From NCBI RefSeq assembly GCF_902652985.1, contig NC_047025.1, forward strand, positions 6,572,001-6,636,000: a stretch of DNA of 64,000 bases, read 5' to 3'. This DNA is from Pecten maximus (taxonomy: Eukaryota). A model generated the notes under the pieces. That model did not search any database. It was not told the origin of the DNA and saw nothing but the letters and a program-made list of their open reading frames with translations. Made by a program: the position numbers and the translations under genes. Positions 7,761 to 58,300 of this stretch are shown piece after piece (position 1 is the first letter of the stretch; every line of letters starts with the position of its first letter).

Positions 7761-8148
7761 GAATAAGTTAAATGAATTTTTTTTCTTTGTCAATAAAAGT
7801 TAAAATAAACAAAAAAAAAACAAAAAACAAACAAACCCTGAAAATAGTTTTAAATGGAAGCTCGTCTGCAGAAAAGGATATCAAAGGTATATAAAGAAAG
7901 GGAACAGAATAATATTTGTACATTGGTATGGTCAACTTGTGAATTATTTTGAAACTAATTTGAGGTATAACACTCGATAATGTAATTCGTCACGTGATTG
8001 TCTTAACGTGACAATCGGCCACGATCAAAGACAGCGTCCATGGTAGACTATCGTGATGATATTGAGTAATTTCGGTCAGCAGACAGGTATATATGCGACC
8101 ATAGATCAGTCGTACTGTACACCAGATCTTACAGACCTCGGACAGACA

Positions 8149-9599
8149 ATGAACTCCACCTTCGCTTTGGTTTTTGTAGGCCTCTTGGGTAAGTGTAAAA
8201 TTATTTCAAATCATTATTTAATTAATGATTATTATTTTTTAGCTCTGCTGTGCCTAACCCTCAACTTCTACTGAAGGGTGTTAATATCTTGTGTTTACTA
8301 TGTCCTGCTTGAAACATTCTAATTCATTTCACCTGCGTCCATTTAAAACTCAGTATGGAAACAAAACATTTTGGCTCTAATCCATCTTAACGATCCAATT
8401 CTACCGAGAGATGTTAATATTATGTTTTTTCTTTGGACAATTACTACAGCTCGAAACTTTCAAGAAACCAACATAATGCTTAATATAACACTTTGTTGCT
8501 TAATCCTTGCTTAAAGTATATTCCAATCAACCAGTGACAATAGTGACTTCTTGATCCTAAAAAGATTGTCTTAACAAATAAAATCAGAAGTCTACCATGT
8601 AAACCATTTTATACGTCATTGTCTTAAATATATAAAATGAATATATATATATTTTTGTTTTTATGAAATTTACGACGAGATCAGGCATGGCAAACTCAAA
8701 TGCTCAAATGTATGCCATTATGAAGGTACAATTACTAAAATCGCCTAATTTTCACCTGTTTCAAGCGGCTGTTGTGTACAGCGAGATTTGCAAGAGCAAG
8801 ACTGATTGTGCAGACACTACTTGTCAAAGCGGTATGATCGAATGTGTCGCGATCTCTGGTAACCACTTGTGCACGTGCATTCACGGCGATATGGACAAAA
8901 TTAGTAAGTATACGTATAAGTTTGTACTCAGCAAAAGAAATAAAACGGTTAACAAAGAAAAAATACATGTTAAGCGTCATAACATTAATTTAATTTCCAT
9001 TTCTGCTTCGTATAATGTTTAAGCACAAATAAGTCATCAGTTTGAAAAAATACTATCACGAATACATTCAAAGTTTCCTTTCTGTTATTATCATCCTTGA
9101 AATATACACAGCTACAAGTGCTACAACCTCAGATTATACCATAGCTTGTATATATTTCTGTATGTTCTCTTTGATATCTTGAACAATATCAACACAATTG
9201 TTAATGTTTTGTATCTTTTGTAACAGAACATGTCATATATGGATATTCCATGACCACTATTGGCTGTATTATATATACCGTTCATATTGTTAGACTTCTC
9301 CTTATTTTTAAGATATTTTTCATGATCAAAGTGATTTTTTTTAATGTTTATATCCTGTACACTTTGATTATAGCCATTCAGTGTAGGGGAATGCTTGCTG
9401 ATCTTGAAATGTTTCTATTATTTCTGCAGATTGTACTGCCAGGGCTGATTGTCAGATGGACTCTGTTTCCATGGACTGTGATCAAAGTCTAAGACACTGT
9501 TACGACGAGACCTGTCGCTGTGAGGGCCATGGACACAACCATGGAATGTTTACCCATCCACCTCATCCTACCCATCCTCCCCATGGCGGAGCTCATTAG
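8149..9599 (+). CDS. Secreted 12-Cys peptide with His/Pro tail, Cvsi/I84-like, copy 2 (115 aa)
   Basis: Exons 8149-8188, 8766-8903, 9430-9599 (348 nt, open frame). Tail GHGHNHGMFTHPPHPTHPPHGGAH. The exon 2 acceptor is AAG instead of TAG. Confidence 0.85.
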
Positions 9600-23593: not shown

Positions 23594-26500
23594 TCATACT
23601 GTTTCTGTCCAATCTTCCCTTGCCCAGTCAGGCAATGGTGTCTCATACTCCCACTTTGGCCCCTGTAACCAGAAGTAAAACACAAAAGTTTTATTAATAT
23701 ACATAACAAATGTAGATCAATATTACTTCATAGATTATGGAGGAAATGTTCAACAGAAACCACATAAGTTGTAGGGGTGAGATTCTCAAAAACCTGACTT
23801 TCCAGAAAATTTGTATTAATCAGTTGGATATACAATGTAAATAGTGAAAAAAATAATTATGTAAAATCTATCAAAATCATAAGCATCTGGGTAGCACATG
23901 ACATACCTGTAGAATATAATTAGCCAGATGAATTACTGTAATTAAGGAAATGAATAAGTCTTTAAACATATGGAACAAAATGCACTCAACAAATTACAGG
24001 ACATAATGGCTACTTCAGCAATTGCTATGATTGTTCATCAATAATGATTATATTATGACACTGCCCCTCTCCCCCAATACTGACAAACACCAAGCTTTGG
24101 TCATGTGACCATATGACCACTATTGAGATGCCACAGATAGTCACAGATTTTGCTCTTTCAAGAATTTCTCAACAGACTCCAGAAAATGTGAAATATTTCA
24201 ATATATATAACTCATCTACGATATTAGTGATTATCATTGACATAAAATTTAATTCACATTTTCAAAAAAAAAAAAAAAAAGTTTGAAAGTCTTAAAAACT
24301 TGATATTTTCTAACAAATTAAAACTATAATGATTGAAATAATTAAAAGGTGTTTAAAATAATTATTAAACAATGTTAGTTAATGTGTCCCATATAGGTAG
24401 TCACCTTGTATTTAAGAGCGTGAAGGTACATGATCATATCAGCTGGCTCTGGATCTCTGAAACTCTTCTTACAGTAGAAGCATTTTTCATCAGGTACCCA
24501 TTTCTGTGGGTCAAATTTTGGTTTTTCAGCTGTCACTACAGGAGAAGCCTGTCCACACTTGTCAGAGCTCAATCCTTCGGTTGGTGTATCATTATCAAAG
24601 TCACTGTTAACAAGTTTACATCGTTTAGCTTTAGGTTCTTCCTCAGGTAAGTATGTCCTAGTAAGTACAGATGAATTTGAAGCTTCTTCCTCACACAGAT
24701 TTTCATCAGAAGTTTTTCCCTCACACTGATTGGAACTTGAAGCCTCACTTTGATTTAACCTACAATCACTTTCCTGAGAAGAATTAGATTGATAAGCTTT
24801 ATTGTGAAAATGAGAAGAATCTGCCTCTCCTTGATGTTTGACATTTGTGTGATCAGCCTGTGCTTTCATCTCCTCCAGTCTTTTCTTAAATAATAGGTTA
24901 TCTCCTTCAACCCATAAACCAGTGTTGTGATTTTCTCTAAAAGATTTCACAATCTGTAATATGGAAAAACAACATTTTTTTAACTATTCAAGTATTAAAT
25001 TAAGTATCTACATGTATGTCTAAAACAAATTAATTGTGCAATACATGACAGTTTAATGAATTACTCTAGATCTCCTCTACCGAATGTTTTACGTTGATGT
25101 AGGTCAACCTACATTCTATATACGACAACCATAACCCATGTATGAAATTCAAGTGAAATTTTGGCGTGTTTAATTTTGGCTCATTCACCCCAGGCGGCAA
25201 ATAAACCAAAATATAACCACATCCAAAATATCCCAAAGTATGGTATAGTGTAGGAGATAGAGCTCAAACAAGATCAAGTATGGGAGGTTAGGACAGACAG
25301 AAGGATGGACGGACAAAATGCAAAACTTCAGTCCTCCACCTATCCCCTCCCCTGTCCCGTTTTTGTTGGGGGACTAATTAAACCATTTCTAAGAAAAGAT
25401 AAGTGTTTCAGGCATTCTAGACAAAGCATATTCCATATTTGTGGCCAATTAAAGTATTATTGCCAGCAATATATTCAGAAATTTTATAGCTTCAAACTGA
25501 ACATTCATAAACTTTTACCTCTGTCAAAGATTTTTCCAGAATGCCACCTTTACCGTTGTTTGGACCAAAGCAGCCTTCGTTATACATGGGGTCATTTTTT
25601 ATTGGAAAGCCTTCAATCAAAGAACAACATATTAATAATTTACATCCTATCTCTATCAAGCATGGCTCAATTAGAGATGAAGTGACAATCTCTCACAGTA
25701 TATACATTTCAGTTGAAGTTAATGTCTGGGAACAATTAGAAAGTCTTTAATAGAAAGTCTAGAAACAATAGAAAGTCTAGGAACAATAGAAAGTCTGTGA
25801 ACAATAGAAAGTCTGGAAACAATAGAAAGTCTGGGAACAATAAAAGTCTGGGAATAATAAAAAGTCTGGGAACAATAGATGGATATACAGTACCTACTAA
25901 TGATATACAAAATCTGTGTATTGGTTACCTACCAAGGTACTGCAGGTGAAGTCGGATCTGGTGAGTTCTGCCGGACTGTGGCAAGCCTTAAATAAATACA
26001 TTCATGCAAAATGAGGAAAATAATAAATGTTACCATGCAACAACAGATACACTATACCTCCTTCTACTTAATAAACCAAACATTTATGGAATTATATCAC
26101 TGATTTAATTTATTTGACAGGTAATGTCATCAGTACAAGCATTGTCTTGCTCGTTCAAAACAGATAAATATTTTTGAAGTATGTACTTTGTCAAAAAAAA
26201 AGGAACAAAGGGATGGAACATCAGATACAGCTGAAAAAGGACTATTTTAGAATTGATGATTCTGAAAAAAATGAAGAAGGGACTTTATTATGAGGGCAGA
26301 GGCTTGTGGATAAGGGCTTTATTATGAGGGCAGAGGCTTGTAGATAGGGGCTTATTTGAGGACAGGGCTTATTTGTGGGTAAATATCTTAATAAGCCAAA
26401 AACTTACACCTGATCAAACTGGACGTTCCATTGTAGCTGATGAATTCAAACACAGTTTTGCTGGCCTTACCGCCTGGTACCACACCATACAAACTGTCTT

Positions 26501-29500
26501 TGGAAGACAGGACACCTAATGGTTGATCGCACTCTATGACACCTCTGAAAACAAAGATATGGTATTACTATTATTAGCTAATTTATTACTACAACTGATT
26601 TTAAAGTCTGAAAACACAGGTATTACTTAAAGGGGCTTGAGTAAAGTCTAGGTTGTCAAAATTAAACTTACCGGAAAATAGGTATTCTTTCCAAATAGTA
26701 AAAGTTTTAATCTTTAGATTAATAATTTAAAAGCAGTGATACTCTCAAGATAAACCAAAGTTCTTCGAGTATTAAGTCCTGAAAATTCTTAATTCGACTC
26801 GAAGTAACACAAATCACAGCAAAAAAAAACAAGAGGCCCATGGGGCCTGTATCGCTCACCTGGTTGGATTAGACCAAATGTTGAAATAATATTCATATTC
26901 AAATTGTTTTATTTGTAAAACTCTAACAATGCTATATATGGTTATAGTGTGGGAATCCGAACTGCTTTAAAGATTAATGAAGTCCAGACTCTCTTAGGTC
27001 TGAAAGACCTCAAGAATTGTTTATAGAACATGCATTCATCACTTTATGACTAGTAGCGATTTAAAGGAATTACCTCTATTTCACCTATTGGGCCCGCCCC
27101 TTTGGCCATTCGGGGGTCAGAGTCACCATTTATGCAAAATCTGTTCCCCTGTTTCTCACCAAATTGGGTTCAAATCCATTCATAACTTGATGACTAGTAG
27201 CGATTCAAAGGAATTACCTCTATTTCCCCCACTGGGCCCCTCCCTTTTGACTCCTTTAGGGTCAGAGCCACCATTTATGCAAAATCTGTTCCCCTTCCCC
27301 CAAGGATGTTTCTGACCAAATTGGGTTCAAATCCCTTCATAACTTTATGACTAGTAGAGATTTAGAGGAATTACCTCTATTTCCCATATTTGGCCCCGCC
27401 CCTTTGGCCCCTCGGGGGTCAGAATCACCATTTACGCAAAATCTGTTCCCCTTTCCCCAAGGATGTTTCTGACCAAATTGGGTTCAAATCCATTCATAAC
27501 TTTATGACTAGTAGTGATTTAAAGAAATTGCCTCTATTACCCCTATTGGGCCCGCCCCTTTGGCCCCTCGGGGGTCAGAGCCACCATTTATGCAAAATCT
27601 TTTCCCCTTCCCCCAAGAATGTTTCTGACCAAGTTGGGTTCAAATCCATTCATAACTTTATGACTAGTAGAGATTTAGAGGAATTACCTCTATTTCCCAT
27701 ATTTGGCCCCGCCCCTTTGGCCCCTCGGGGGTCAGAATCACCATTTATGCAAAATCTGTTCCCCTTTCCCCAAGGATGTTTCTGACCAAATTGGGTTCAA
27801 ATCCATTCATAACTTTATGACTAGTAGTGATTTAAAGAAATTACCTCTATTACCCCTATTGGGCCCCGCCCCTTTGGCCCCTCGGGGGTCAGAGCCACCA
27901 TTTATGCAAAATCTTTTCCCCTTCCCCCAAGGATGTTTCTGACCAAGTTGGGTTCAAATCCATTCATAACTTTATGACTAGTAGCGATTTAGAGGAATTA
28001 CCTCTATTTCCCATATTTGGCCCCGCCCCTTTAGCCCCTGTGGGGTCAGAGCCACCATTTATGCAAAATCTGTTCCCCTTCCCCCAAGGATGTTTCTGAC
28101 CAAATTGGGTTCAAATCCATTCATAACTTGATGACTAGTAGTGATTTAAAGGAATTACCTCTATTACCCATATTTGGCCCCGCCCCTTTGGCCCCTCGGG
28201 GGTCAGAGCCACCATTTATGCAAAATCTCTTCCCCTTCCCCCCAAGGATGTTTCTGACCAAATTGGGTTCAAATCCATTCATAACTTTATGACTAGTAGT
28301 GATTTAAAGGAATTACCTCTATTTCCCCTATTGGGCCCCGCCCCTTTGGCCCCTTGGGGGTCAGAGCCACCATTTATGCAAAATCTCTTCCTCTTCCCCC
28401 AAGGATGTTTCTGACCAAATTGGGTTCAAATCCATTCTTAACTTTATGACTAGTAGCGATTTAAAGGAATTACCTCTATTTCCCCTATTGGGCCCCACCC
28501 CTTTGGCCCCTCGGGGGTCAGAATCACCATTTATGCAAAATCTGTTCCCCTTCCCCCAAGGATGTTTCTGACCAAATTGGGTTCAAATCCATTCATAACT
28601 TTATGACGAGTAGCGATTTAAAGGAATTACCTCTATTTCCCCTATTGGGCCCCGCCCCTTTGGCCCCTCAGGGGTCAGAGTCAACATTTATGCAAAATCT
28701 GTTCCCATTCTGCCAAGAATGTTTCTGACCAAATTTGGTCAAAATCCAATAAGAACTTTATGACTAGTAGAGATTTGAAGCAAATGTTGACGGACGGACG
28801 ACGGACGGACGACGGACGTTGCGCCATGGCATAAGCTCACCGGACCTTCGGTCCAGGTGAGCTAAAAACATACAGTATTTGTATACAATACACTTTTTTC
28901 CTGTACATTTCGGTGTTAATTTCATTACTTATAGGCACAAACACTTGTATAATCATCATTCTGATATAGATTTCGTCAATAGATATTATGCATGCTTCTG
29001 ATATGCAAACGAAGGAATGCCCCGTTAATACAACTTACAATCTGAAAGCATACTAGGTATTACTTATAATGACCACTTATAATCTGTTGTAAAGTCAAGA
29101 AACAGATTCCTATGTCTTGAGGAATAATTCTTCCCATGAGAATATGTATATATATGACACAGTTTGGTGAGGATCGCATCAGCATATTCCAGAATTATGT
29201 GTGGGAGGCTCCAGTATCAAAATTTGATGGGTGGTGAGGAAAAAGCCCCATTTGTCTAGATATATAATTTACTAAATATGTTTTAATATTTGATGGGTGG
29301 TGAGGAAAAAAAGTCCTATTTTTCTAGATTTATAATTTTACTAAAATATGTTTTAATATTTGATTGGTTGTGGGTCTCTGAAAATATTTCCCCACCCCTT
29401 CCACATGGATAATTTTGGAACATCCCTAATGAAAACTGCTACAATAATATGGTTTAAAACTGGAAATATTTTACTGCTGATTTTGGTGTTTTTTTTAACT

Positions 29501-32500
29501 GATTACAGATCTCAATCCTATTCACAGTTGAATGTACAAAGTTAACATGAAATGAAGTTTTATAAGTCGGTTGAAAATCTTGGGTATTATATTTTTCTAT
29601 AACCTGAAAATTTCTATGAATATATCTAGTATGTAAAATATCCAATTTTTAAAGCAGTCATGATTTACTCTCAGAGATGGTTTTTGATAAATTACAATTG
29701 AAAGTGGAAAATGCATGAAAGGAATGTTATACAGTAGAAAGTCTCTGGCAAATAGAAAAACTAGAAAATGTCTGTAAGACACAAATGATTAGCTAGTAAC
29801 ATTGCATTTGCATCAGGATGGGAGGGACATGGATAACACTATATGCCCCCCCCCCCCCCCAACCATTTCATGGCGGGGGCATAACAAGATTAGCCATTGA
29901 TTCTTTTCAATACCACACACAGGGAATCCCAACACTAAACAGCATATAGAACATCATACTTTTTTTCAAATTGAATTGCCAAAGTCTGCATATATAGTAA
30001 GATAATTGTTATGTCACAAACTTTTATGAAAGTGTTTTGATATGAAAGCTCATGACTTTCCACTGATTGCCATCATTAATCTAACACTGTTCTAAGACTT
30101 ACTCGGGGAATTTCCCTTTAACTCTTGCTAGATATTCCTTCTGAACCCTCCTTTGAAGAATATCATCCTCCATCTCACGAGTTTTTTCTGCAGACTTGGC
30201 CATGATAAGGAGTCCTGAAGTAAGCCGGTCCAGACGGTATATTGCTGCAGACATAGCAAATAACTGTAATCTTTTCATATAATTCAATTATTAACGATTT
30301 TTAAAATGGATCTAAATAATGAATTGGCTAAAGACATAAAGAAATCTTTTCAAAAATTATTATTTTACAAAACTTTATAATAGTTAAACATTCTCATCCT
30401 TGCCTTTCTACATCCTCCATGTATTATGACATGATACATACCAGTATTTGTTTTCATTTGAATTTTAATTAATAGAAAAAAAAATGTCACAAATTAAAAG
30501 ATAAGATTAAATGCAAATCATAAATATTTCTGTTGAACATATTTAAACAAGTTTTTATAAGATCATGAATATTCATTTGTATTAACAAAATCAATGTTCA
30601 ACTTCTTTGAATTTAGATTTAAAATTTATCTTCAATTTGTGAAAGATAAAAATTCTTGGAAAACATGTCCACATTTTTGCCAATATATTCAAGGGTATAT
30701 ATAATGTACATAATTACATGTATTTACTTTGGTTGTAAACAGGAACAAAAGGCCCAATTGAACTGTATTGCTCACCTGTTCTGTAGCTATGATGATTTGT
30801 ATTAACATTAAATTTAAAGTTACTTTAAATTGTGTCATTGATGCAGATCCTTTAATCAAAATTTTGTTTTTTAATGAACAAATTTGATATCCCTTCATCT
30901 CAGTATACTACAAACCCAATACCAGGAACATGGGTCTCTTCATGGTTATTGAGAAATATTTTTTTTACACATTTTAAACATGTGACTTTAAAAGGTCAAG
31001 ATCATACTATATGATTAACCTTTTAGCTCATAAACCCAGCATGTTACGGGCCCAATATTTTAACCCTTGTGCCTCTTCGTTTTTTTTAATTTGGAAAAAA
31101 AAAAAAAAAAAAAATTGCAAAAAAATGAAAAAAAGAAAAAAAGCATTGAAAATTTCCAATACTTTATCAAGCATTGTTCAAAATATTGATATGGAGTTTC
31201 TGTAAGACCTACTTCGCAGATTAGTGTATCCCAGATCTTTGCCGAGGATGAAGGGGATGGAGTTGAAGCGGTATCTTCCACAGGGGTGGACGGGGATAGA
31301 GGACGGTTTGTTTATCACAATAACATTTTCATCATCTGTCACAATCTCCAAAGGAGTCCCGATCACTGGGTTCTCATGTCTGTCAAAATAATCAAGATAA
31401 CGATGTACAAAATTGTCTTCATACAAATACCAATACATGTACTAAATTGTTTCAATTTTTTTGTTGAAGTTTATTTCTATTACCTGTTTATTATTTACCT
31501 GTGTGTTTCTGGTTACTTATATACCAGGTAATCATGTCTACCTGAATGTGTATTTGAATGAATTGATAGGCTGTATATTTTGGTTACCTTTGTATTTCAA
31601 TTACCCTTGTGTTTCGATTACCTGCGTATTTTGATTACCTGTATATTTTGATTACCTGTGTATTATTTTGATTACCTGTATATTTTGATTACCTGGGTAT
31701 TTTGACTACCTGTATATTTTGATTATCTGTATATTTTGATTACCTGTGTATTTTGATAACCTGTATATTATTTTGATTACCTGTATATTTTGATTACCTG
31801 TGTATTTTGATTACCTGTATAATTAATTTGATTACCTGTGTATTTTGATTACCTGCATGATTTGATTACCTGTATAATTTGAATACCTGTGTATTTTGAT
31901 TACCTGTGTATTTTGATTACTGTGTATTTTGATTACCTGTATAATTTGATTACCTGTGTATTTTGATTACCTGTATGATTTGATTACCTGACAGTTTATT
32001 TTGATTACCTGTGTATTTCAATTACCTGTATATTTTGCAATTGATTACCTGTATATTTTGATTACCTGTATAATTTGATTACCTGTGTATTTTGATTACC
32101 TGTATGATTTAATTACCTGACAGTGTATTTCAATTACCTGTGTATTTTGATTACCTGTATATTTTGATTACCTGTGTATTTTGATTACCTGTATGATTTA
32201 ATTACCTGACAGTGTATTTTGATTACCTGTGTATTCGATGTGATAAAAAATCATTATCCTTCAATATTTTGTCTGTAGTGACCACTTCACCATTTAATGA
32301 AATGTCTCCATCTTGAAGAATTTCTTCCTAGAAAATCATAAAATACATTTTCCAATTAGACAAACGATCAAGACTAGTATCAAATAAAATGGTACATAAT
32401 CTGTTACAACATTAATGTAAACACTCAATACAAGGAAAAAATGGCACCTCAAATCATTGCCATGAAAAACAAACAATGCAAACAATAACCAAAAAACCGA

Positions 32501-35500: not shown

Positions 35501-36537
35501 ACGTACATATGCATGTATATATATACTCTACTTTCACACATGAACAGAACAACATTAAAATATACATTAGTACAAAGTGGTATTTATGTAACAGGAGAAG
35601 AAAAATGAGGTAGATGTGTTTCTGTTCTGCAATAAATATATGATTAGCCTGAGTTTCCTAACCCTTGAACCATGTCTGGTAGGGCAAGATAGGAAAACGT
35701 GGAATCCGACACCATTTGATGTCGCTAAGATTTTGGTGCAAACACAATAAAATCTGGTGTGACATAGCACCTTCAATTCCTTACATATCTGGATGAATGA
35801 GATATTTATTTTATCCAAAAACATCTGTTTAGTCCCATAATGGTTTTCTATTTCATTTGTATATAGAGTATAGACCACGTTTACAGACATGGTGTCAAGG
35901 CCAGAGGAAACTCGGGCCAATATATACTGTATGCATATTGTCAAATTGGTTCTGATGACAGCATATGCTAGCTGCGATAACCCTAGCTCTGTACGACGGA
36001 CAGACAATTTCTGACAGAGGGTCGTCGTCAGAGAGCAATGTAGACAGGGTATGAATATTCGTTCTAAGCATATGTCTCACTGTCAAAACTAGTCAACATT
36101 TGAATTAAAGCCGAGAAACATAGCCCTGTACATGTAGTCTACACCAGACTGAGACATGGTGTCTGGGCCAGAGGAAACTCGGGTTATAATGAGAAACTAT
36201 GCTAGACATTATGGTCATCTTTCTTCTAATATTGTCGAATAGTGTGTGCCCTAGGGCTGTTTGTGATCCTCATTAAATAAATAAAAAAATAGAACAATAG
36301 TGTGTGATATAATTGACCTATTACCCTCTTCAGTGCTCGCTTGGAGAGTCCCATAGGATTTGCAACTATATCCTTCGTCTTATCGTTTACTTTTTTCGTA
36401 TCATTAGGACTGTTCAACTTGTCAGCGAGTTCAAACTCATCGTTTTTATCTGTATCAGTTAGTGTGGCTGGGACAGATGTTACTGTCGATTCATCTTCCA
36501 TCTTTTGGTCGACCACATCTTTTTGAGAACTAGCCAT
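23594..36537 (-). CDS. RPUSD2: RluA-family RNA pseudouridine synthase, RPUSD2-like (~591 aa, 11 coding exons)
   Basis: Exons 36537-36325, 34656-34533, 33549-33422, 32327-32227, 31379-31213, 30244-30103, 26544-26408, 25986-25933, 25610-25519, 24953-24405, 23662-23594 join in frame (1776 nt). Motifs: [47 protein letters not shown] (catalytic Asp), [42 protein letters not shown]. Confidence 0.92.
25722..25880. repeat. Minisatellite, ~18-19 bp unit (AAAGTCTGGGAACAATAG), ~8 copies
   Basis: Directly visible; lies in an RPUSD2 intron. Confidence 0.85.
26828..28867 (-). mobile_element. Non-autonomous Helentron/HINE (pearl/DINE-like) element with internal 157-bp tandem array
   Basis: One end is AACAAGAGGCCCATGGGGCC..GCTCACCTG (short hairpin plus subterminal IR). 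The other end is a (GACG)n microsatellite plus the hairpin AGCTCACCGGACCTTCGGTCCAGGTGAGCT. Eleven ~157-bp units lie between 27047 and 28761. Confidence 0.75.
31575..32235 (-). repeat. Minisatellite, ~17 bp unit (TACACAGGTAATCAAAA on -), ~35 copies, derived from the RPUSD2 exon 4 splice donor
   Basis: The first unit overlaps the real junction ATACACAG|GTAATC at 32227/32226. Confidence 0.9.
32953..32993 (-). ncRNA. Minimal type I hammerhead ribozyme motif (Penelope-like-element type)
   Basis: Minus strand reads UGCC-CUGAGGA-C-GGCCU-ACCUU-AGGCC-GAAAC-AU-GUC|GGCA: complete core, stem I UGCC/GGCA, stem II GGCCU/AGGCC, palindromic stem III ACAUGU, GUC cleavage triplet. Confidence 0.7.
34118..34229. 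mobile_element. 112-bp fold-back MITE with 8-bp TSD
   Basis: TIRs CACAGGGGCTTG...CAAGCCCCTGTG, inverted over ~43 bp; GCCATACT duplicated at 34110-34117 and 34230-34237. Confidence 0.85.
34748..35017 (-). mobile_element. tRNA-derived CORE-type SINE
   Basis: Head TAGCTCAGTCGGTTAGAGC, CORE-like CTTGGGCAAGGCACTTTACCCT, (AAAC)n tail; same family as 38397-38727, 43208-43391 and 44198-44505. Confidence 0.75.
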
Positions 36538-36789
36538 TATATTTCTTGGTTGAATATCAGTTTTTGAGATTTTTTTACGACACCAATTTCTAATCGGAAA
36601 CTTGTTTGTGAAATATTTCACATAGTTCAAAAGCACTAGTCTCATGTAAAATGGTGGACATGTATTTCAATCAAAGTAATGCAAACGAACTACATGTCGT
36701 TAAATTACACAGAATTAAAACGATTAATCCGTAAAATCCAATGTATCAAGAGGCTAATTCGCCTATCATCGATAACGTGCATCTTTCAT

Positions 36790-36860
36790 GGGCGCAGACA
36801 TCTTGAAAAGTAAACTTCCGGCTACTTTCATTCTTGATTCTAGCGTACTTCCGGTAGGAC
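36790..36860. promoter_or_regulatory. Putative bidirectional promoter of RPUSD2 and CLPTM1L
   Basis: Two ETS/GABPA-type ACTTCCGG sites (36814-36821, 36847-36854) and a YY1-like GACATCTT (~36797) lie between divergent start codons 760 bp apart. Probable non-coding CLPTM1L exon 1 donor AAG|GTAGG near 36929. Confidence 0.55.
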
Positions 36861-37296
36861 ACATGCAGAGCTGTCCTCTCACAAACATTCAAGCAGGAAG
36901 GTCGGGAAATGGTATTTAAATGATTTAAGGTAGGCTCAAAGTTTGTTTTACATGGAATTCTTTCAAATGCGTTAATTGATATGAATGCTTCGATTCTTAG
37001 TCAGTCCAATTGTATGCAACTTTGACAGATTTTGCCGTGCACATCTCTACAGTAGACATGATTTGCATTGATCATAGGTCAAACAATACTATTCAGTTTA
37101 GCAGTTTAAAATGATTCATTGTGTCTCAAACATGTGTTGTATATGTACATATATAGCGTATTAAGTCCTCACAGCAGGTATTTTCTTTTAAAGGTTCGTC
37201 GATCGGTTCACATCTCCTGCAGTTGAAGATGACAAGATATATGTAGTACTGTACATTATAAGCTCTAATTAGACGAAGACTACGTTCTGTAACAGG

Positions 37297-40200
37297 ATGA
37301 AGCTGTCCTTTAGTTTGGTTGTATCTGCCCTTTTTCTTGGCTACATTGGTCACTCTATGTGGGTTATCTATGGGATTTTCTTCCCCACTCCATGTGCTAA
37401 AGGCAAGAGATGTATTTATCCATATATTGGACAGAAACCAACGCCAGAACTAGAGGTTTGTTTTCATAATTTTCTAGGACATGTACGTGTTTATTTTGTT
37501 AATCAAATTACTTTATTTTGTTACATTTTTGTAAAATTTTCATTATTTGATTAAAATATATAAAACTATTTAAATCTTGATTACATACAATGTAGATCTG
37601 TAATTAATATACAATTGTATAGCTTTATTGGCAGCTTATTAAGGTTGATTGTTATCTCCTTAAGTAATTTTTGCTCAGCTTAACTTCAACAAGGGATGTA
37701 TTACTCAAAACTACTTAAACGTGCAATATGCACAAATACAGTTGATGTATATGATAACAATCTTTTTCAGATGCAAATCTTTACCTCTACAAAGCAGAAA
37801 GGTGTCAGTGAAAGTGATCTGAAGCTGATCTGGAGGAATGACAGTTTGGATATTCATCAGACATATGTAAAGTAAGAGTCAACAATGTAAAGTAAGAGCC
37901 AACAATGTAAAGTAAGAGTCAACAATGTAAAGTAAGAGTCAACATGTAAAGTAGGGTGAACAATGTAAAGTAGGGTGAACAATGTAAAGTAGGGTGAACA
38001 ATGTAAAGTAAGAGTCAACAATGTAAAGTAAGAGTCAACAATGTAAAGTAAGAGTCAATAATGTAAAGTAAGAGTCAACAATGTAAAGTAAGAGTCAATA
38101 ATACATGTAAAGTAAGAGTCAACATTGTAAAGTAAAGTAAGAGTCAACAATGTAAAGTAAGAGTCAATAATGTAAAGTAAGAGCCAACAATGTAAAGTCA
38201 GAGTCAACAATGTAAAGTAGGGTGAACAATGTAAAGTAAGAGTCAATAATACATGTAAAGTAAGAGTCAACATTGTAAAGTAAAGTAAGAGTCATCAATG
38301 TAAAGTAAGAGTCAACAATGAGTTTTGTCTCTTTTATTTGAAATACTGTGAAATTACTCTGTATACTGCATTGGCATTTCAAATAATTTGCGGCCAATAT
38401 AACTCAACTGGCTAGAGCACTGACCACATAATTTAACCTCTGGTGTCTGGTGAGTTCCGAGGTACATGATTCAACGCTTCCTATCCGTGTTGGTTCATGT
38501 TTCTCGAGAAGCTGAGAAATGGGCCTGTCTGGTGCTGTTATGGTTATGTCCTCGGGCAAGACATTTTACCCTAATTGATCTGAATGGCATGTAACATTAA
38601 CAGGCATGTAACATTAACAGGCATACCTTTGTTGTTCAGTGAGGTAGTCACCAACTACTACAAGGAGACCCCACCTCAAAATGATCCTGTCTGTCATGGG
38701 GAAATAAACCCCACAAACAAACAAACATATAGCATAAGTTTGTTATGTAATATGTGTTAGCTACCATTAAGCAACTTGTATGAAATAGATGGGTATACAT
38801 GAAATGTTAAAAGAATCTGAAAATACAAAATATTATTAAGATTACTTTCAACTATGTACAGAGACAAGCTAGAATTTGAGATCATTCTTTTACAGAGATG
38901 TAAATGTTTCCATGCCGCTAAAGACAAGAAGGAATGGAACACTGTACATCCATGTGTTCGTCCATCCAAAGGGACATGATCCATTCGACAGCACCTATAG
39001 CGTACACACCTTGGTAACCATGACAACATACTCTCTGCCGCAAGCAGAGTTCTTCAGTCTGCTTGGGGACAGAAATGAGGTACAGTTAAAACATGTCAAT
39101 GCTAATTACTAGCTGTTTCCCCAAAGTAGAGAAAAGCATATTGAAGGTCAGGGCTTTTTCTAAGGTTTTTTTAATAGACCCCATTCTCAATTGAAATAAT
39201 TTCATATTAAATCAAACTTCCAAAATTTTACTCCCAAAAAAATCTGTACCGATTCACCAACTCTCTTCCCAAAATGAGACAAAAAAAGCCCCATACTAAA
39301 CTAGTGAGAAAAAGCCCTGATGGTTATTCTAAAAAGTAAAAATAGGTTAATTAAGATGATATGTGATCTTCAAATATGTGAGGTTATCATATATTCATTA
39401 CAATTAGATTTGATTGTAACTGTCACTTTTCGTTTATTTTGTTAAGAGTGAGACTCTGGACAGAAACATCCCAATCAGCCACTGGAGGAAGAAATTGTTT
39501 GTGACATTGGTGACCGACCCCTTGGCTATAGACATGCATGCAATTCCAGCCGATTTGTATAAGTTCATCAGGTAACACTCTGAAGAAATGCTATACATAA
39601 TATTTAAAATCATTGGCATTGGTTAAACTCTCGGTCAATTTTGAATTTTAGTACATATTCATAAAAAAAAATATGTAAACTAATCCTATACATAATGGTA
39701 GTACTAAATAAGTAACTCAATCTCGCAATTATATATCGGGCTGGTCTCGGCCACAATTGGAAGCGAAATATCAAAGTCAGATGTTTGTTTTACTTTAATT
39801 CAAAGTACTTAATAGGTTTAATTTTTTTTTTTTTTTTTTATTTAACGTCCTATTAACAGCCAGGGTCATTTAAGGATGTGCCAGGTTTTGGAAGTGGAGG
39901 AAAGCCGGAGTATCCGGTAAAAAACCACCGGCCTACAGTCAGTACCTGGCAACTGCCCCACGTAGGTTTCAAACTCGCAACCCAGTGGTGGAGGGCTAGT
40001 GATAAAGTGTCGGTACACCTTAACCACTCGGCCACCAAGGCCCCGTACTTAATAGGTGGGAAAATCAGCTTCTTTGTTTATGTTTTCAGTACAATTAGTT
40101 AAGAATGTGTTATGGTTTCTGTTTCAGTCCTGCCCCAAATGGACGCTACTTGCCAATCGTATACATAGACCATATCAGTTTCAGAGTGAGGGATCTCCTG

Positions 40201-49794: not shown

Positions 49795-50047
49795 TTTTGT
49801 GTTTTGGCAATTGTCCTCTGAATGTCTATTGTGGTAATATTTTTGTTTGTGTTTTGGTAATTGTCTTTGGAATGTCTATTGTGGTGTTATTTTTTGTGTG
49901 TGTTTTTTGGTAATTTTCTTTGGAATGTCTATTGTGGGGATGTATTTTTTGTGTTTTGGTAATTGTCTTCGGAATGTCTATTGTGGTGATATTTTTTTTT
50001 TTTTTTTGTGTGTTTTGGTAATTGTCTTCGGAATGTCTAATGTGGTA
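49795..50047. repeat. Minisatellite, ~48-55 bp unit (TTTGTGTTTTGGTAATTGTCTTCGGAATGTCTATTGTGG), ~5 copies
   Basis: Directly visible. Confidence 0.8.
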
Positions 50048-51194
50048 TAATATATGGAAATTTTTAAGATTCTGTCACTCAAGAACAACCTAAAGTGAAG
50101 ATATATAGATCATTGGTGTTGGTTACTGAGAAAGACCAAGCATGGTTGGTGGAGGGACTAAAATGATTATTGTTAATATTTATATAATAATCATGGTAAG
50201 CAATTAATTATATATAGATGGGGTTCGCAAATACTTTCATCTATTTTCTTGGATATTATCAGCAATTATTAACAGTGTACCATTTTATAAAGTTTATTCA
50301 TTTCAACCCAAAGAAACTTGAGTGGACTCGGCCATTCATTCATCATCGGAAGTCCAATATGTTCCGTAGGGGTGAAAGGGTAAGGTATTTTGATATCAGG
50401 TTTGATGCTGATTGACTTGGTGTTTTTCTGACGGTGTAAAGTTCTTTGTATCTTTTAAAGTCGCAGAAACTATTTTGTTACCTTTTCAGAAGTGGCAATG
50501 TTGGTGTAAACATTTCATTTTATAGTTTTATATCTAGATCCTTTGCCCAAACAATATGTTAGTGAAACTTAATCAAATTTGATATGTTGATAGTTAGTTC
50601 ACATTAAGAACCTATCAACACGTTTGCTGAGTACTATCCAGATGTAATGGTCCAGGGAAGTTTCGTGTCTAGCCCAGTTTCTCAGGAAGGTACCTGTGGT
50701 TTTCCACCAACTCTTAAGATATTGTGGTTTGGACATCTCAACCCACTACACTATAGATTCCTTTTATGTGTGTTTTGGGGTTAAAAACCTTGATAGTAAT
50801 GCAACGCTTCAATATGTAAACGTGTATTGATTATACATAAGGTGCTTACTAATTGCTTAAATAAGTTCAAATTACTCGGAAGTTTTTTCAGTAGTTTTTG
50901 TGAAAATGTGCATAAATCTGAAGTAAAATATGGTGTTTGTTTAAAATCTTGTCAAACATTCATGTAAGACTCTAAAGTTAATGATCAACTACCTTTTTAG
51001 TAATTCAAAAGCTTTTCATAGTGTATCTTAATATTTTCCTTTATATAGACTGAGGTGTTTGTTGAAAGGACACATCTTCACTAGTGCCACTTCATTTGTG
51101 ACGTGTATTGTTTTAATCAATTGGTAATATAAATTTGCCAACGGCTTCTGTTGCCTACAAAAAGAAATGAAACATACAAATGTATAAAATTATT

Positions 51195-51662
51195 TGATCA
51201 CTTAATTAATACCTTGTATGATATTATTTGATCATTTAATACCTTGTTTGATATTATTTGATCATTTAATACCTTGTATGATGATATCATTTGATCATTT
51301 AATACCTGGTATGATATCATTTGATCATTGAATACCATGTATAATGTCTTTTGATAATGATTTGATACCTTGTATGATATTATTTGATTATGAATTTTTA
51401 CCTTGCATGATAACATTTGATCATTTAATACCTGGTATGATATCATTTGATCATTTAATACCTTGTATGATGATATCATTTGATCATTGAATACCATGTA
51501 CAGTATAATGTCTTTTGATAATGATTTAATACCTTGTCTGATATCATTTGATTATGATTTTTTACCTTGCATGATAACATTTGATCATTTAATACCTTGT
51601 ATGATAACATTTGATCATTTAATACCTGGTATGATATCATTTGATCATTTAATACCTTGTAT
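51195..51662. repeat. Minisatellite, ~30 bp unit (GATCATTTAATACCTTGTATGATATCATTT)
   Basis: Directly visible; it generates the repetitive pseudo-ORFs 51198-51497 and 51487-51771. Confidence 0.85.
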
Positions 51663-55300: not shown

Positions 55301-58300
55301 AAGAAAATCAGTTCTTAGTGTTAGAATTCCAAATATAATGTCAAACTCTGATCGATAACACAATCCATCACCAAACTTCCATAAAATGTTAAGTAAATGA
55401 AAATATCAATAAAATATTTGGCAACATAGGAAGAAAAAAAAGAGAAATAGAGAAACTACCAATACGGGTACGAATTGGTAAATACATAATATGCTTTTTT
55501 TCTCACATTTTGAAACCAATTAGAAATCTCCAACTTTAATGTAGCTGTTCAAACTAGTTAAAATTATTACTCTTAAGAACTATTCTGAATTTGAAATGCA
55601 TCAGACGTACCAGGTAACAACAGATAATGGGATCTGATCTTGACGACAGAGCTCCCAATAAAGTAGAAATGCGGATAATCCAATTAAAGTTGCTTTATCA
55701 ATGATATTGGAAAGTTGCTCATCGAGAGTTCAGGATGACAGGTTTAGTTTGATACCACAGGCAATTGGATAGACTGGCCCATTGTCTCTAGAATATTTTG
55801 ATTATAAGTAAAATTCAGCTTCATGATTTTGGTCTCTAGGGTATGTCTGCTTCCAAGTTTCAAAGTAGGGAGGGGCAGATAATCTAGTATTATAATTTAG
55901 CAGAACAATTCTTAATATAAACTGGCTGGTAGCAAGTCTAGCAATTGGAGTTAAGTCATACTTTGTGACCTAAACTTCAGTAAAGGTGTACGGGTAGGGT
56001 TGTTGTCGTCACAAGTGTATGTGGTACAGCTTTCTTCGATCGATTCCCCCACGGCTATACAATTTCCTTTGAAGTCCCTACATGCTGAAAGACAAAAACA
56101 ACGCAACAGTTTGAGTTGACAATAAACGCAACAGAATATATGTAATATTTCTTCGTATGGCTTACCCTGTCGGAACACATGGTCTTATTCTCTTTGTATT
56201 TTGTAAATATATATCGGACTTCTACCCTGTTGTATTTTGTCCTTGTTTTATTGATTTTGATTTAGACTAACGGTTTTCTTATTATATCAGTATTCTGTGT
56301 TGTTTTCTAATGCTCTTTAATGGCGTTTAAATCATCGCAATAGATCATATTGGTATCCATTGTCTTTATTTAATTTCATGGCTCAGTAAACGAAAACATC
56401 AACTTTAGGTGACCTGTTTTAATTCATACCGACGAACTTGAAGTAAAGAATACAATTCTTACACATGAAAGCGAATCCCTAACTTCAAATCGCGGAAAGG
56501 AGGTAAAAGGACTGTCGACATATTAACGAAACCATAACCACATCCCCCCCCCCCCCCTCCTTATAATACAATCAGTGCGTCTCTTTGTCGAAAACGACGA
56601 ATCGATACTACATTGTACGTTCTCAGTGTTAGAATTAAGGTTGTGACAATGTCGGGATAGAGGTTGTGACAATGTAAGAATTGCGATTGTGACAATGTAA
56701 GAACTAAGGTTGTGACAATGTAAGAACTAAGGTTGTGACAATGTTAGAACTGAGGTTGTGACAATGTAAGAATCGAGGTTGTGACATTGTAAGGATCGAG
56801 GTTGTGACAATGTAAGAACTAAGGTTGTGACAATGTCGGAATAGAGGTTGTGACAATGTAAGAATTGCGATTGTGACAATGTAAGAACTAAGGTTGTGAC
56901 AATGTAAGAACTAAGGTTGTGACAATGTTAGAACTGAGGTTGTGACAATGTAAGAATCGAGGTTGTGACAATGTTAGAACTTAGGTTGTGACAATGTTAG
57001 AACTTAGATTGTGACAATGTAAGAACTAAGGTTGTGACGATGTAAGAACTGAGGTTGTGACAATGTAAGAATAAAGGTTGTGACAATGTAAGAACTAAAG
57101 TTGTGACAATGTTAGAACTGAAGTTGTGACACAAAATGTATATCTGGATATGTATATATCATTGAAACAAATTAATGAATAAGTAGATTTTTTTAGGGTT
57201 TTGATTGCATTCATAAATTGATAGACTTACCACGTTTGTATGGATCCATTCGGGCACTATATCCGTTGTCAGGAGTCCTCTTTACACTACATACATACTC
57301 AGAACATGACATATTGTGAAAACTTCCTTCATCAACACAGCTTCCACGGAACATACAACCTGCATAAAAGAACAGATATTTACAACTGTCATGTTGTATT
57401 GAAACTGGGAATCGACACTTCTCACGACTGCTTATATTCGATTTCGAACCTAACAATAATTTTATACCATATAGTAGTTTTATAGAGTTTTCATGTTATC
57501 ACTTACATATTCAACAGTCATGTCATATTTATTGGTATGGTAAACTTCACTTTGGGAAATGTTAGAAAAAACAATTGTAAATATTACAAATTACATTATG
57601 TATAAACCTGTGACGTTCATATCTACTATATAGTAATGATATACATATGTACTTTCTTTCTCTCAAGTAATAGGTATGTTGTGATTAAGGCAATTAATAT
57701 GTTTTTTATTCGTACCCATTTTTTGAATTTTCTTAGAAAACGTGTAGCTTGAACCTCGCTGTTCTTGTTCGCAGTAATATGTAGCACAATGTCGTCTGTC
57801 CTGGTAGGTGCCTCCCACATTCAAACAAGTGCCATCAGACATTGTACAAGCTAGTTACAACAAAGACGAAGAATGCCACATTTTTATTATATTATAAATA
57901 TATATTTCAAGTCTTTACAACAGTACAGTGTCTACCCAGGTTATCCTCTATTCGTACAAGCATGATATGCACGCATCCCCTTTGTCGTTCATTCAGAAAT
58001 CCAATGGACATGTTTCACCATTTTGTCCAGTATTAGGTATTATAAGAATCAGGTCAGAAACGCATCCATGGATAATTATAATTATTAGCTCATGATATTC
58101 ATAATTAACATAACTTACCAGGAGTATATACCCTTCTTATATAAAAATCTATAAACATCAAATGGTTCCTGAACAAAAAGGGTTCAAGTTTTTATTTTGT
58201 GAGGTACCTTATTTGGGTAAAAGCATGCTTGAGTAGTTATTACAATTGCAATAGGTTGAATTATTCCTATTTCAGACCTTGATCTTATAATTACCGATCT

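Follow-up and report, generated by a model that had tools for sequence, protein, structure and literature searches.

The window analysed here is a 64-kb stretch of the 918-Mb Pecten maximus genome, with positions given in forward-strand coordinates. It contains two genes arranged head to head: RPUSD2, with 11 exons on the minus strand, and CLPTM1L, with 17 exons on the plus strand. The stretch 31208-31378 has 98% identity to the P. maximus RPUSD2-like protein P0002, in which PF00849 was found and the catalytic domain occupies residues 136-282. P0002 begins in exon 2, and spliced contigs add an upstream exon at 36325-36549, with an open frame and a resemblance to the N termini of other scallop orthologs. 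Where the two genes face each other (36325-37455), contigs reach 36799 on one side and start at 37191 on the other, which leaves ~400 bases in which a shared promoter is likely. A likely third gene on the minus strand (63213-53262) has exons for an apextrin C-terminal domain (PF16977, E 2.9e-19), followed by several predicted single-exon cysteine-rich modules. Near-identical short exon-like stretches at 1045-1098, 8135-8188, and 18476-18363, two on the plus strand and one on the minus strand, are probably a dispersed repeat.

Exon 4 of RPUSD2 (32227-32327, minus strand) is 101 nt long and ends in phase 2. It is followed by an intron of 847 nt in phase 2 (intron 4, 31380-32226, minus strand), defined by both protein alignment and spliced contigs, and by exon 5 (31213-31379, minus strand), where the pseudouridine synthase domain starts. 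A 17-bp minisatellite lies across the boundary of exon 4 and intron 4 (31571-32235, minus strand), with a unit made up of the tail of the exon and the head of the intron, and TRF assigns it a period of 17, 37.5 copies, 79% matches, and a score of 714. A preliminary description of this DNA had placed the start of the array at the exon 4 donor; TRF, the protein alignment, and the contigs agree on this position, with the final 9 bases of the exon lying within the array. The array fills most of the intron, with ~745 of its 847 bases derived from the repeat and the final ~100 bases free of it. Beyond the minisatellite is a decayed distal zone (31483-31570, minus strand), with four donor-like sites at 31541, 31524, 31498, and 31483 that are likely to be old array copies.

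To score the donors in the array we used a matrix trained on introns of the P. maximus genome, applied to 37 units from 32226 to 31587. Thirty-five of these units reach a donor score, comprising the authentic site (donor 1, with its GT at 32225-32226 on the minus strand) and 34 pseudo-donors, and the site is lost in the other two. The tandem donors of the preliminary description are therefore real, whereas its figure of ~35 copies is corrected to 37-38, with decayed copies continuing to about 31483. Relative to donor 1 (7.7 bits), 24 pseudo-donors are equal, four are stronger, and six are weaker. At the other end of the intron, the acceptor at 31380 is the highest-scoring AG (7.5 bits), with the AGs of the repeat scoring 6.6 or less and a median of 1.6 for all AGs. 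The CAG|GT motifs of the repeat are poor candidates for recursive splice points, as most of them have low acceptor scores.

The array contains many unit variants, as well as two exact internal repeats of 57 bases that lie 89 and 129 bases apart. Its edges escape homogenisation: units 1 and 2 are variant (21-bp and substituted forms), the distal units are decayed, and the commonest unit is internal. A genome search with a two-unit pattern, allowing up to one mismatch, gave at least four matches, and those listed all lie within the array; a control search gave none. A unit borne by a mobile element was rejected on the same grounds, as there is no dispersal among the matches listed. The copies run head to tail, are of minisatellite size, and are of local origin. 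Intron 6 of RPUSD2 contains a different array, of 10 copies of a 157-bp unit (27033-28780); this unit is likely to be borne by a mobile element because it is also found at another locus (L040).

Of 24 runs, all available as assembled contigs, four (X6, X7, X11, and X12) were mapped to the window. In three of the four (X6, X11, and X12), a contig joins 32227 to 31379, skipping 847 bases that read CT..AC on the plus strand and carrying no repeat insert. X6 and X12 give identical figures and probably represent a single data set, leaving about two independent sets in support of this joint. For X6 and X11 the label as RNA is a guess, and X12 is unlabelled, but the contigs of all three skip introns. 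The RPUSD2 protein is colinear with seven orthologs across the exon 4/5 junction. Therefore, the contig joint and the orthologs together indicate that the main RPUSD2 product uses donor 1, which is chosen in the contigs although four downstream sites score higher. Among the joints listed, the repeat donors are unused. Contigs drop rare forms and so speak for the main product, and minor splicing at donors 2 or 3, as in human IFI6 and CBS, may be compatible with them. As had been described from the letters, use of a downstream donor leads to a premature stop: reading through donor 1 gives R and then an in-frame TAA (32222-32225, minus strand), which directly follows the split Arg codon. Because this stop lies directly past donor 1, it is identical for every downstream donor and precedes the catalytic domain.

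The similar pattern reported for the neighbouring gene is also present. In CLPTM1L, a 20-bp array of 22.1 copies (37865-38320, plus strand) spans the phase-2 donor of exon 2 (37771-37871, plus strand; following intron 37872-38895), and contigs from X6, X11, and X12 join 37871 to 38896; contigs from X7 span neither gene's joint. The CLPTM1L array is independent of that in RPUSD2. However, its use as an argument for a general process fails, since two or more donor arrays among the 26 introns of the window have P = 0.29 at the donor rate that we measured. A candidate third junction array at 51181-51662 was discarded because the preceding 95-nt open frame scores as non-coding (-11.4 bits). Two other arrays (25749-25879 and 56627-57131) are not at junctions, starting ~53 and 99 bases inside introns, and no exon was found at the arrays at 104-354 and 49796-50046.

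A Pfam search located SNF transporter, myosin, and kinase genes, and we measured the rate of junction-copying arrays in 160 surrounding stretches (1.48 Mb), with the RPUSD2 window excluded. Exons were chained by profiles from fetched proteins and loci, and junctions were set by profile score and splice matrix, blind to repeats. This procedure retained 411 of 430 introns, with 19 removed for low margin or weak sites. The sample is non-random, as it draws on three gene families and misses introns that extend beyond the 8-10 kb stretches. Arrays with a period of at least 10 and at least three copies were counted, giving 122 in the 411 introns, where tandem arrays make up 20% of intron bases (78,410 of 382,814). 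Merging reduced the 122 arrays to 120 events, and removal of three with matches at other loci left 117. In the null model, each array is born at a random position of its collapsed intron, and 13.1 junction-copying arrays are expected. Arrays were assigned to junctions either by a strict rule based on TRF edges or by a relaxed rule that requires the unit to align over the junction, with four or more matches on either side of it. Shuffled unit-junction pairs pass the relaxed rule in only 3 and 4 of 1452 cases.

With the relaxed rule, 29 of the 411 introns (7%) have their own junction copied by an array, 17 at the donor and 12 at the acceptor. This is a 2.2-fold excess over the null (locus bootstrap 1.6-2.9, P ~2e-5), and the strict rule on the same introns gives 22 cases and a 1.7-fold excess (locus bootstrap 1.10-2.35). 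The relaxed rule and 112 kinase introns were added after a first strict pass on 318 introns, which found 10 donor and 8 acceptor arrays against 5.7 expected for each and was not significant (P = 0.055 and 0.21). Taking the null over all introns raises the excess to 4-fold, masking interspersed repeats leaves it at 2.1-fold, and it persists in high-identity arrays (15 vs 7.5). By family, there are 17 cases against 5.8 expected in the SNF genes and 8 against 2.7 in the kinases, and the 4 cases in the myosin introns lie no higher than the 4.6 expected. The 29 introns, at loci between L122 and L281 that include L126, L127, L128, L147, L180, L201, and L280, have arrays of 3 to 104 copies with units of 20-111 bp. 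Two SNF paralogs (L153 and L156, C13) carry related 39-bp arrays on the same donor. The array common to these paralogs is likely to be older than the gene duplication, and because the two cases share ancestry there are 28 independent cases.

Arrays also accumulate beside splice sites that they do not copy. Abutting arrays, which start within 35 bases of the site and leave it uncopied, number 18 and 16 at the two sides against 7.1 expected for each, and there is no excess among arrays starting 35-250 bases from a junction. Anchored extension of array edges adds one donor and three acceptor cases; control extensions are themselves long (95th percentile 56 nt), and the four added cases stand outside the count of 29 and inside the 33 behind the per-kb rates. 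Array edges occur at about 1.32 per kb (1.2-1.4) across the junction, 0.90 per kb (0.85-0.94) within 35 nt of it, and 0.24 per kb (0.11-0.36) deeper in introns (P = 6e-7), which amounts to an about four-fold crowding of arrays in the 35 bases at either end of an intron. The rates of spanning and abutting arrays are similar (P = 0.15). Abutting arrays are mixed, with some resembling decayed spanning ones and others clearly not. In a kinase intron at L271, a 25-bp, 22-copy array begins exactly at the donor GT with zero exon bases matched. Because abutting arrays are about as enriched as spanning ones, the bias is positional, toward intron edges, and not specific to the splice signal. The general process suggested for RPUSD2 is thus borne out in part: junction-spanning arrays are enriched in the sample, at 1.7- to 2.2-fold over the null, but abutting arrays are enriched about as much, acceptors are copied as well as donors, and myosin genes have no excess. 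Compared with interior arrays, those at junctions have a greater length (608 vs 384 nt, P = 0.013) and longer units (45 vs 30.5 bp), with no extra divergence (identity 90 vs 87.5, P = 0.52). Unique DNA is not reduced in array-bearing introns (P = 0.57). The fraction of the unit that comes from the exon was set aside as evidence, since its measure is capped and biased low.

The RPUSD2 array is a 'mirage' minisatellite, probably produced by local slippage-type duplication and ordinary turnover, and it is likely to be neutral because assembled RNA splices at donor 1. Microhomology-mediated duplication across the donor could have given rise to the first copies. Bases -13 to -8 of the exon match bases +4 to +9 of a distal unit over 6 bases, and this match may be the old duplication seed. 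Growth would then have proceeded by block duplication, as the two 57-base internal repeats suggest, and the array would be tolerated if, as in human F7, splicing proceeds from the most 5' donor available. The preliminary description had offered a different reading, in which the array acts as a U1 decoy or an NMD switch tunable by copy number. Under such a scheme, the surplus donors would draw away U1 or splicing itself, and truncated transcripts would lower RPUSD2 according to array length. The 34 intact pseudo-donors, four of them scoring above donor 1, are what such a switch would need, and every alternative donor would end the reading frame before the catalytic domain, upstream of six more junctions. 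Human IFI6 and CBS arrays do employ two proximal pseudo-sites (PMC1557585), and tandem-repeat length alters human splicing (PMC10078293). However, donor 1 is the only array donor among the joints listed from contigs, and the stop is generic. Among the SNF and myosin introns, 37 of 55 in phase 2 run into a stop no more than two codons past a read-through donor, compared with 6 of 171 in phase 0 and 3 of 92 in phase 1, and the stop is a by-product because the GTRA donor consensus is read in phase 2; we therefore rejected it as a designed feature. Nor are the donor columns specifically conserved: in 14 arrays with at least six copies and units of up to 80 bp, their consensus match differs from that of the rest of the unit by +0.001 (P = 0.90), and in eight arrays acceptor columns differ by -0.024 (P = 0.31). 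In the RPUSD2 array alone, the consensus match is about 96% in donor columns and 88% in others, with distinct variants per column equal (7 in 8 donor columns vs 8 in 9 other columns). The 12 acceptor cases, the ordinary splice strength of array-bearing junctions (8.8 vs 8.9 bits), and the lack of a significant frame bias in unit lengths (multiples of 3 in 14 of 29 vs 30 of 91, P = 0.18) also argue against a switch, which we regard as very improbable. A similarly poor case can be made for a duplication that created intron 4 or shifted its donor, by intron gain of the Rogers type or by sliding, as has been proposed for mirages (PMC3087553). The repeat-derived bulk of the intron and the proto-splice site CAG|GT in each unit would fit this origin, but the last ~100 bases are repeat-free and end in the best acceptor of the intron, and the protein is unshifted against its orthologs. 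Moreover, the unit combines the exon 4 tail with the intron head and lacks the exon 5 head, which indicates that the intron head predates the duplication.

The excess at intron edges calls for a separate explanation, and here our preference is tentative. For the edge bias we favour survival over a bias of birth or an imperfect null, with somewhat less than even confidence. Deletions that erase an array or its adjoining unique DNA may halt at the splice signal, so that arrays would be sheltered there, the DNA between array and signal removed, and arrays left at the intron ends. The greater length of junction arrays and the array common to the L153 and L156 paralogs lend this step modest support; the equal identity of junction and interior arrays, the confounding of array length by unit length, and the equal amount of unique intron DNA weigh against it. 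A bias of birth, with exon edges as mutational hotspots for short tandem duplication and the array still neutral, is a less probable account. Synthesis during repair or recombination could begin within the conserved exon and slip at the point where divergent haplotypes cease to be homologous; alternatively, the junction could be exposed by co-transcriptional splicing. The sharpness of the excess at the junction, its persistence in high-identity arrays and after masking of interspersed repeats, and the fact that junction arrays are no more decayed than interior ones all suit such hotspots. The data, however, show standing arrays and not births, and a deletion barrier predicts an identical map; the myosin introns and the non-significant first strict pass also count against hotspots. 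We think it rather doubtful that scallop exon edges are birth hotspots for short tandem duplications by a mechanism linked to splicing or to the point where exon homology ends. Unlikely, too, is that the excess is an artefact of the null or the sample and that junction arrays are a chance share in a repeat-rich genome. Three gene families with introns restricted to stretches of 8-10 kb, old repeats that escaped detection and would inflate the 'unique' intron length, adoption of the relaxed rule after the strict pass, and a null that by itself predicts 13 of the 29 cases could all point that way. Yet the strict rule still gives 22 cases against 13.1 on the 411 introns, shuffled pairs hardly ever match, and the SNF and kinase sets are each enriched about 2.9-fold.

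The array in RPUSD2 is a real further case of the known mirage, or junction-spanning minisatellite, and the locus itself is ordinary. What the analysis adds is a sampled rate, in which 7% of scallop introns copy their own splice site at about twice the expectation from random birth, together with the edge bias. No genome-scale count of junction arrays in a mollusc was found in the literature searched, outside which most subscription papers fall. The measured rate opens the question of birth versus survival to population data, and it also calls for caution, as gene prediction and short-read mapping can fail near array junctions. If exon edges were birth hotspots after all, a single mutational process would account on a genome scale for mirages, known from few genes, and would affect about 7% of introns. 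These arrays would then provide a large natural test set for how the spliceosome selects one donor or acceptor out of dozens of identical ones.

Several known systems resemble the scallop arrays. Across the introns of 31 plants and algae, tandem repeats show a U-shaped density that rises toward the ends (PMC3887541); the motifs named in that survey are mainly short, positions are binned on a relative scale (peaks at 10-19% and 80-89%), and it covers no animals and gives no count of junction copies. Human paralogs indicate that introns can arise from repeats at exon-intron boundaries (PMC2812944). In the microhomology-mediated tandem duplication of the Haber-Louis model for minisatellite origin (PMC13167724), duplication starts from a single-copy stretch flanked by short matching arms, and the expansion that follows is mostly neutral; this suits the locus-restricted unit of RPUSD2. 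Unlike in that model, the arm in RPUSD2 is likely to be a 6-base relic, with a spacing of 16 bases against a unit of 17, and splice junctions do not figure in the description consulted. Intron 7 of human F7 contains a 37-bp VNTR, and IFI6 (6-16), CBS intron 13, LMNB2, and PDGF are similar donor cases (PMC1557585). As in RPUSD2, the first F7 unit covers the donor, identical pseudo-donors follow, and the most upstream site is used despite somewhat stronger ones downstream; the number of pseudo-sites is 4-8 in F7, 25 in IFI6, and 34 in RPUSD2. Scanning from 5' to 3' was shown by minigenes for F7 (PMC1557585), whereas for RPUSD2 we infer it and the contigs are consistent with it. IFI6 and CBS use two proximal pseudo-sites in addition, a minor use that would be invisible to the scallop contigs. 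The closest likeness is to the mirages of amphioxus, another marine invertebrate, described in the globins BflGb6 and BflGb9, Adh3, TnC, and PGBD5 (PMC3087553; PMC3902484). There, too, the boundary is copied in tandem, on the donor or acceptor side, with units of 10-160 bp, many of them with GT or AG; splicing was reported as normal, the origin was called unclear, and generality was left open (PMC3087553). The RPUSD2 array likewise has a boundary-spanning terminal unit, retained pseudo-sites, and the authentic site in the main transcript. It differs in having a 17-bp unit in 37 copies, and length variation between haplotypes and in somatic tissue is an amphioxus result. The amphioxus papers treat single genes, whereas the scallop analysis provides a rate over 411 introns.
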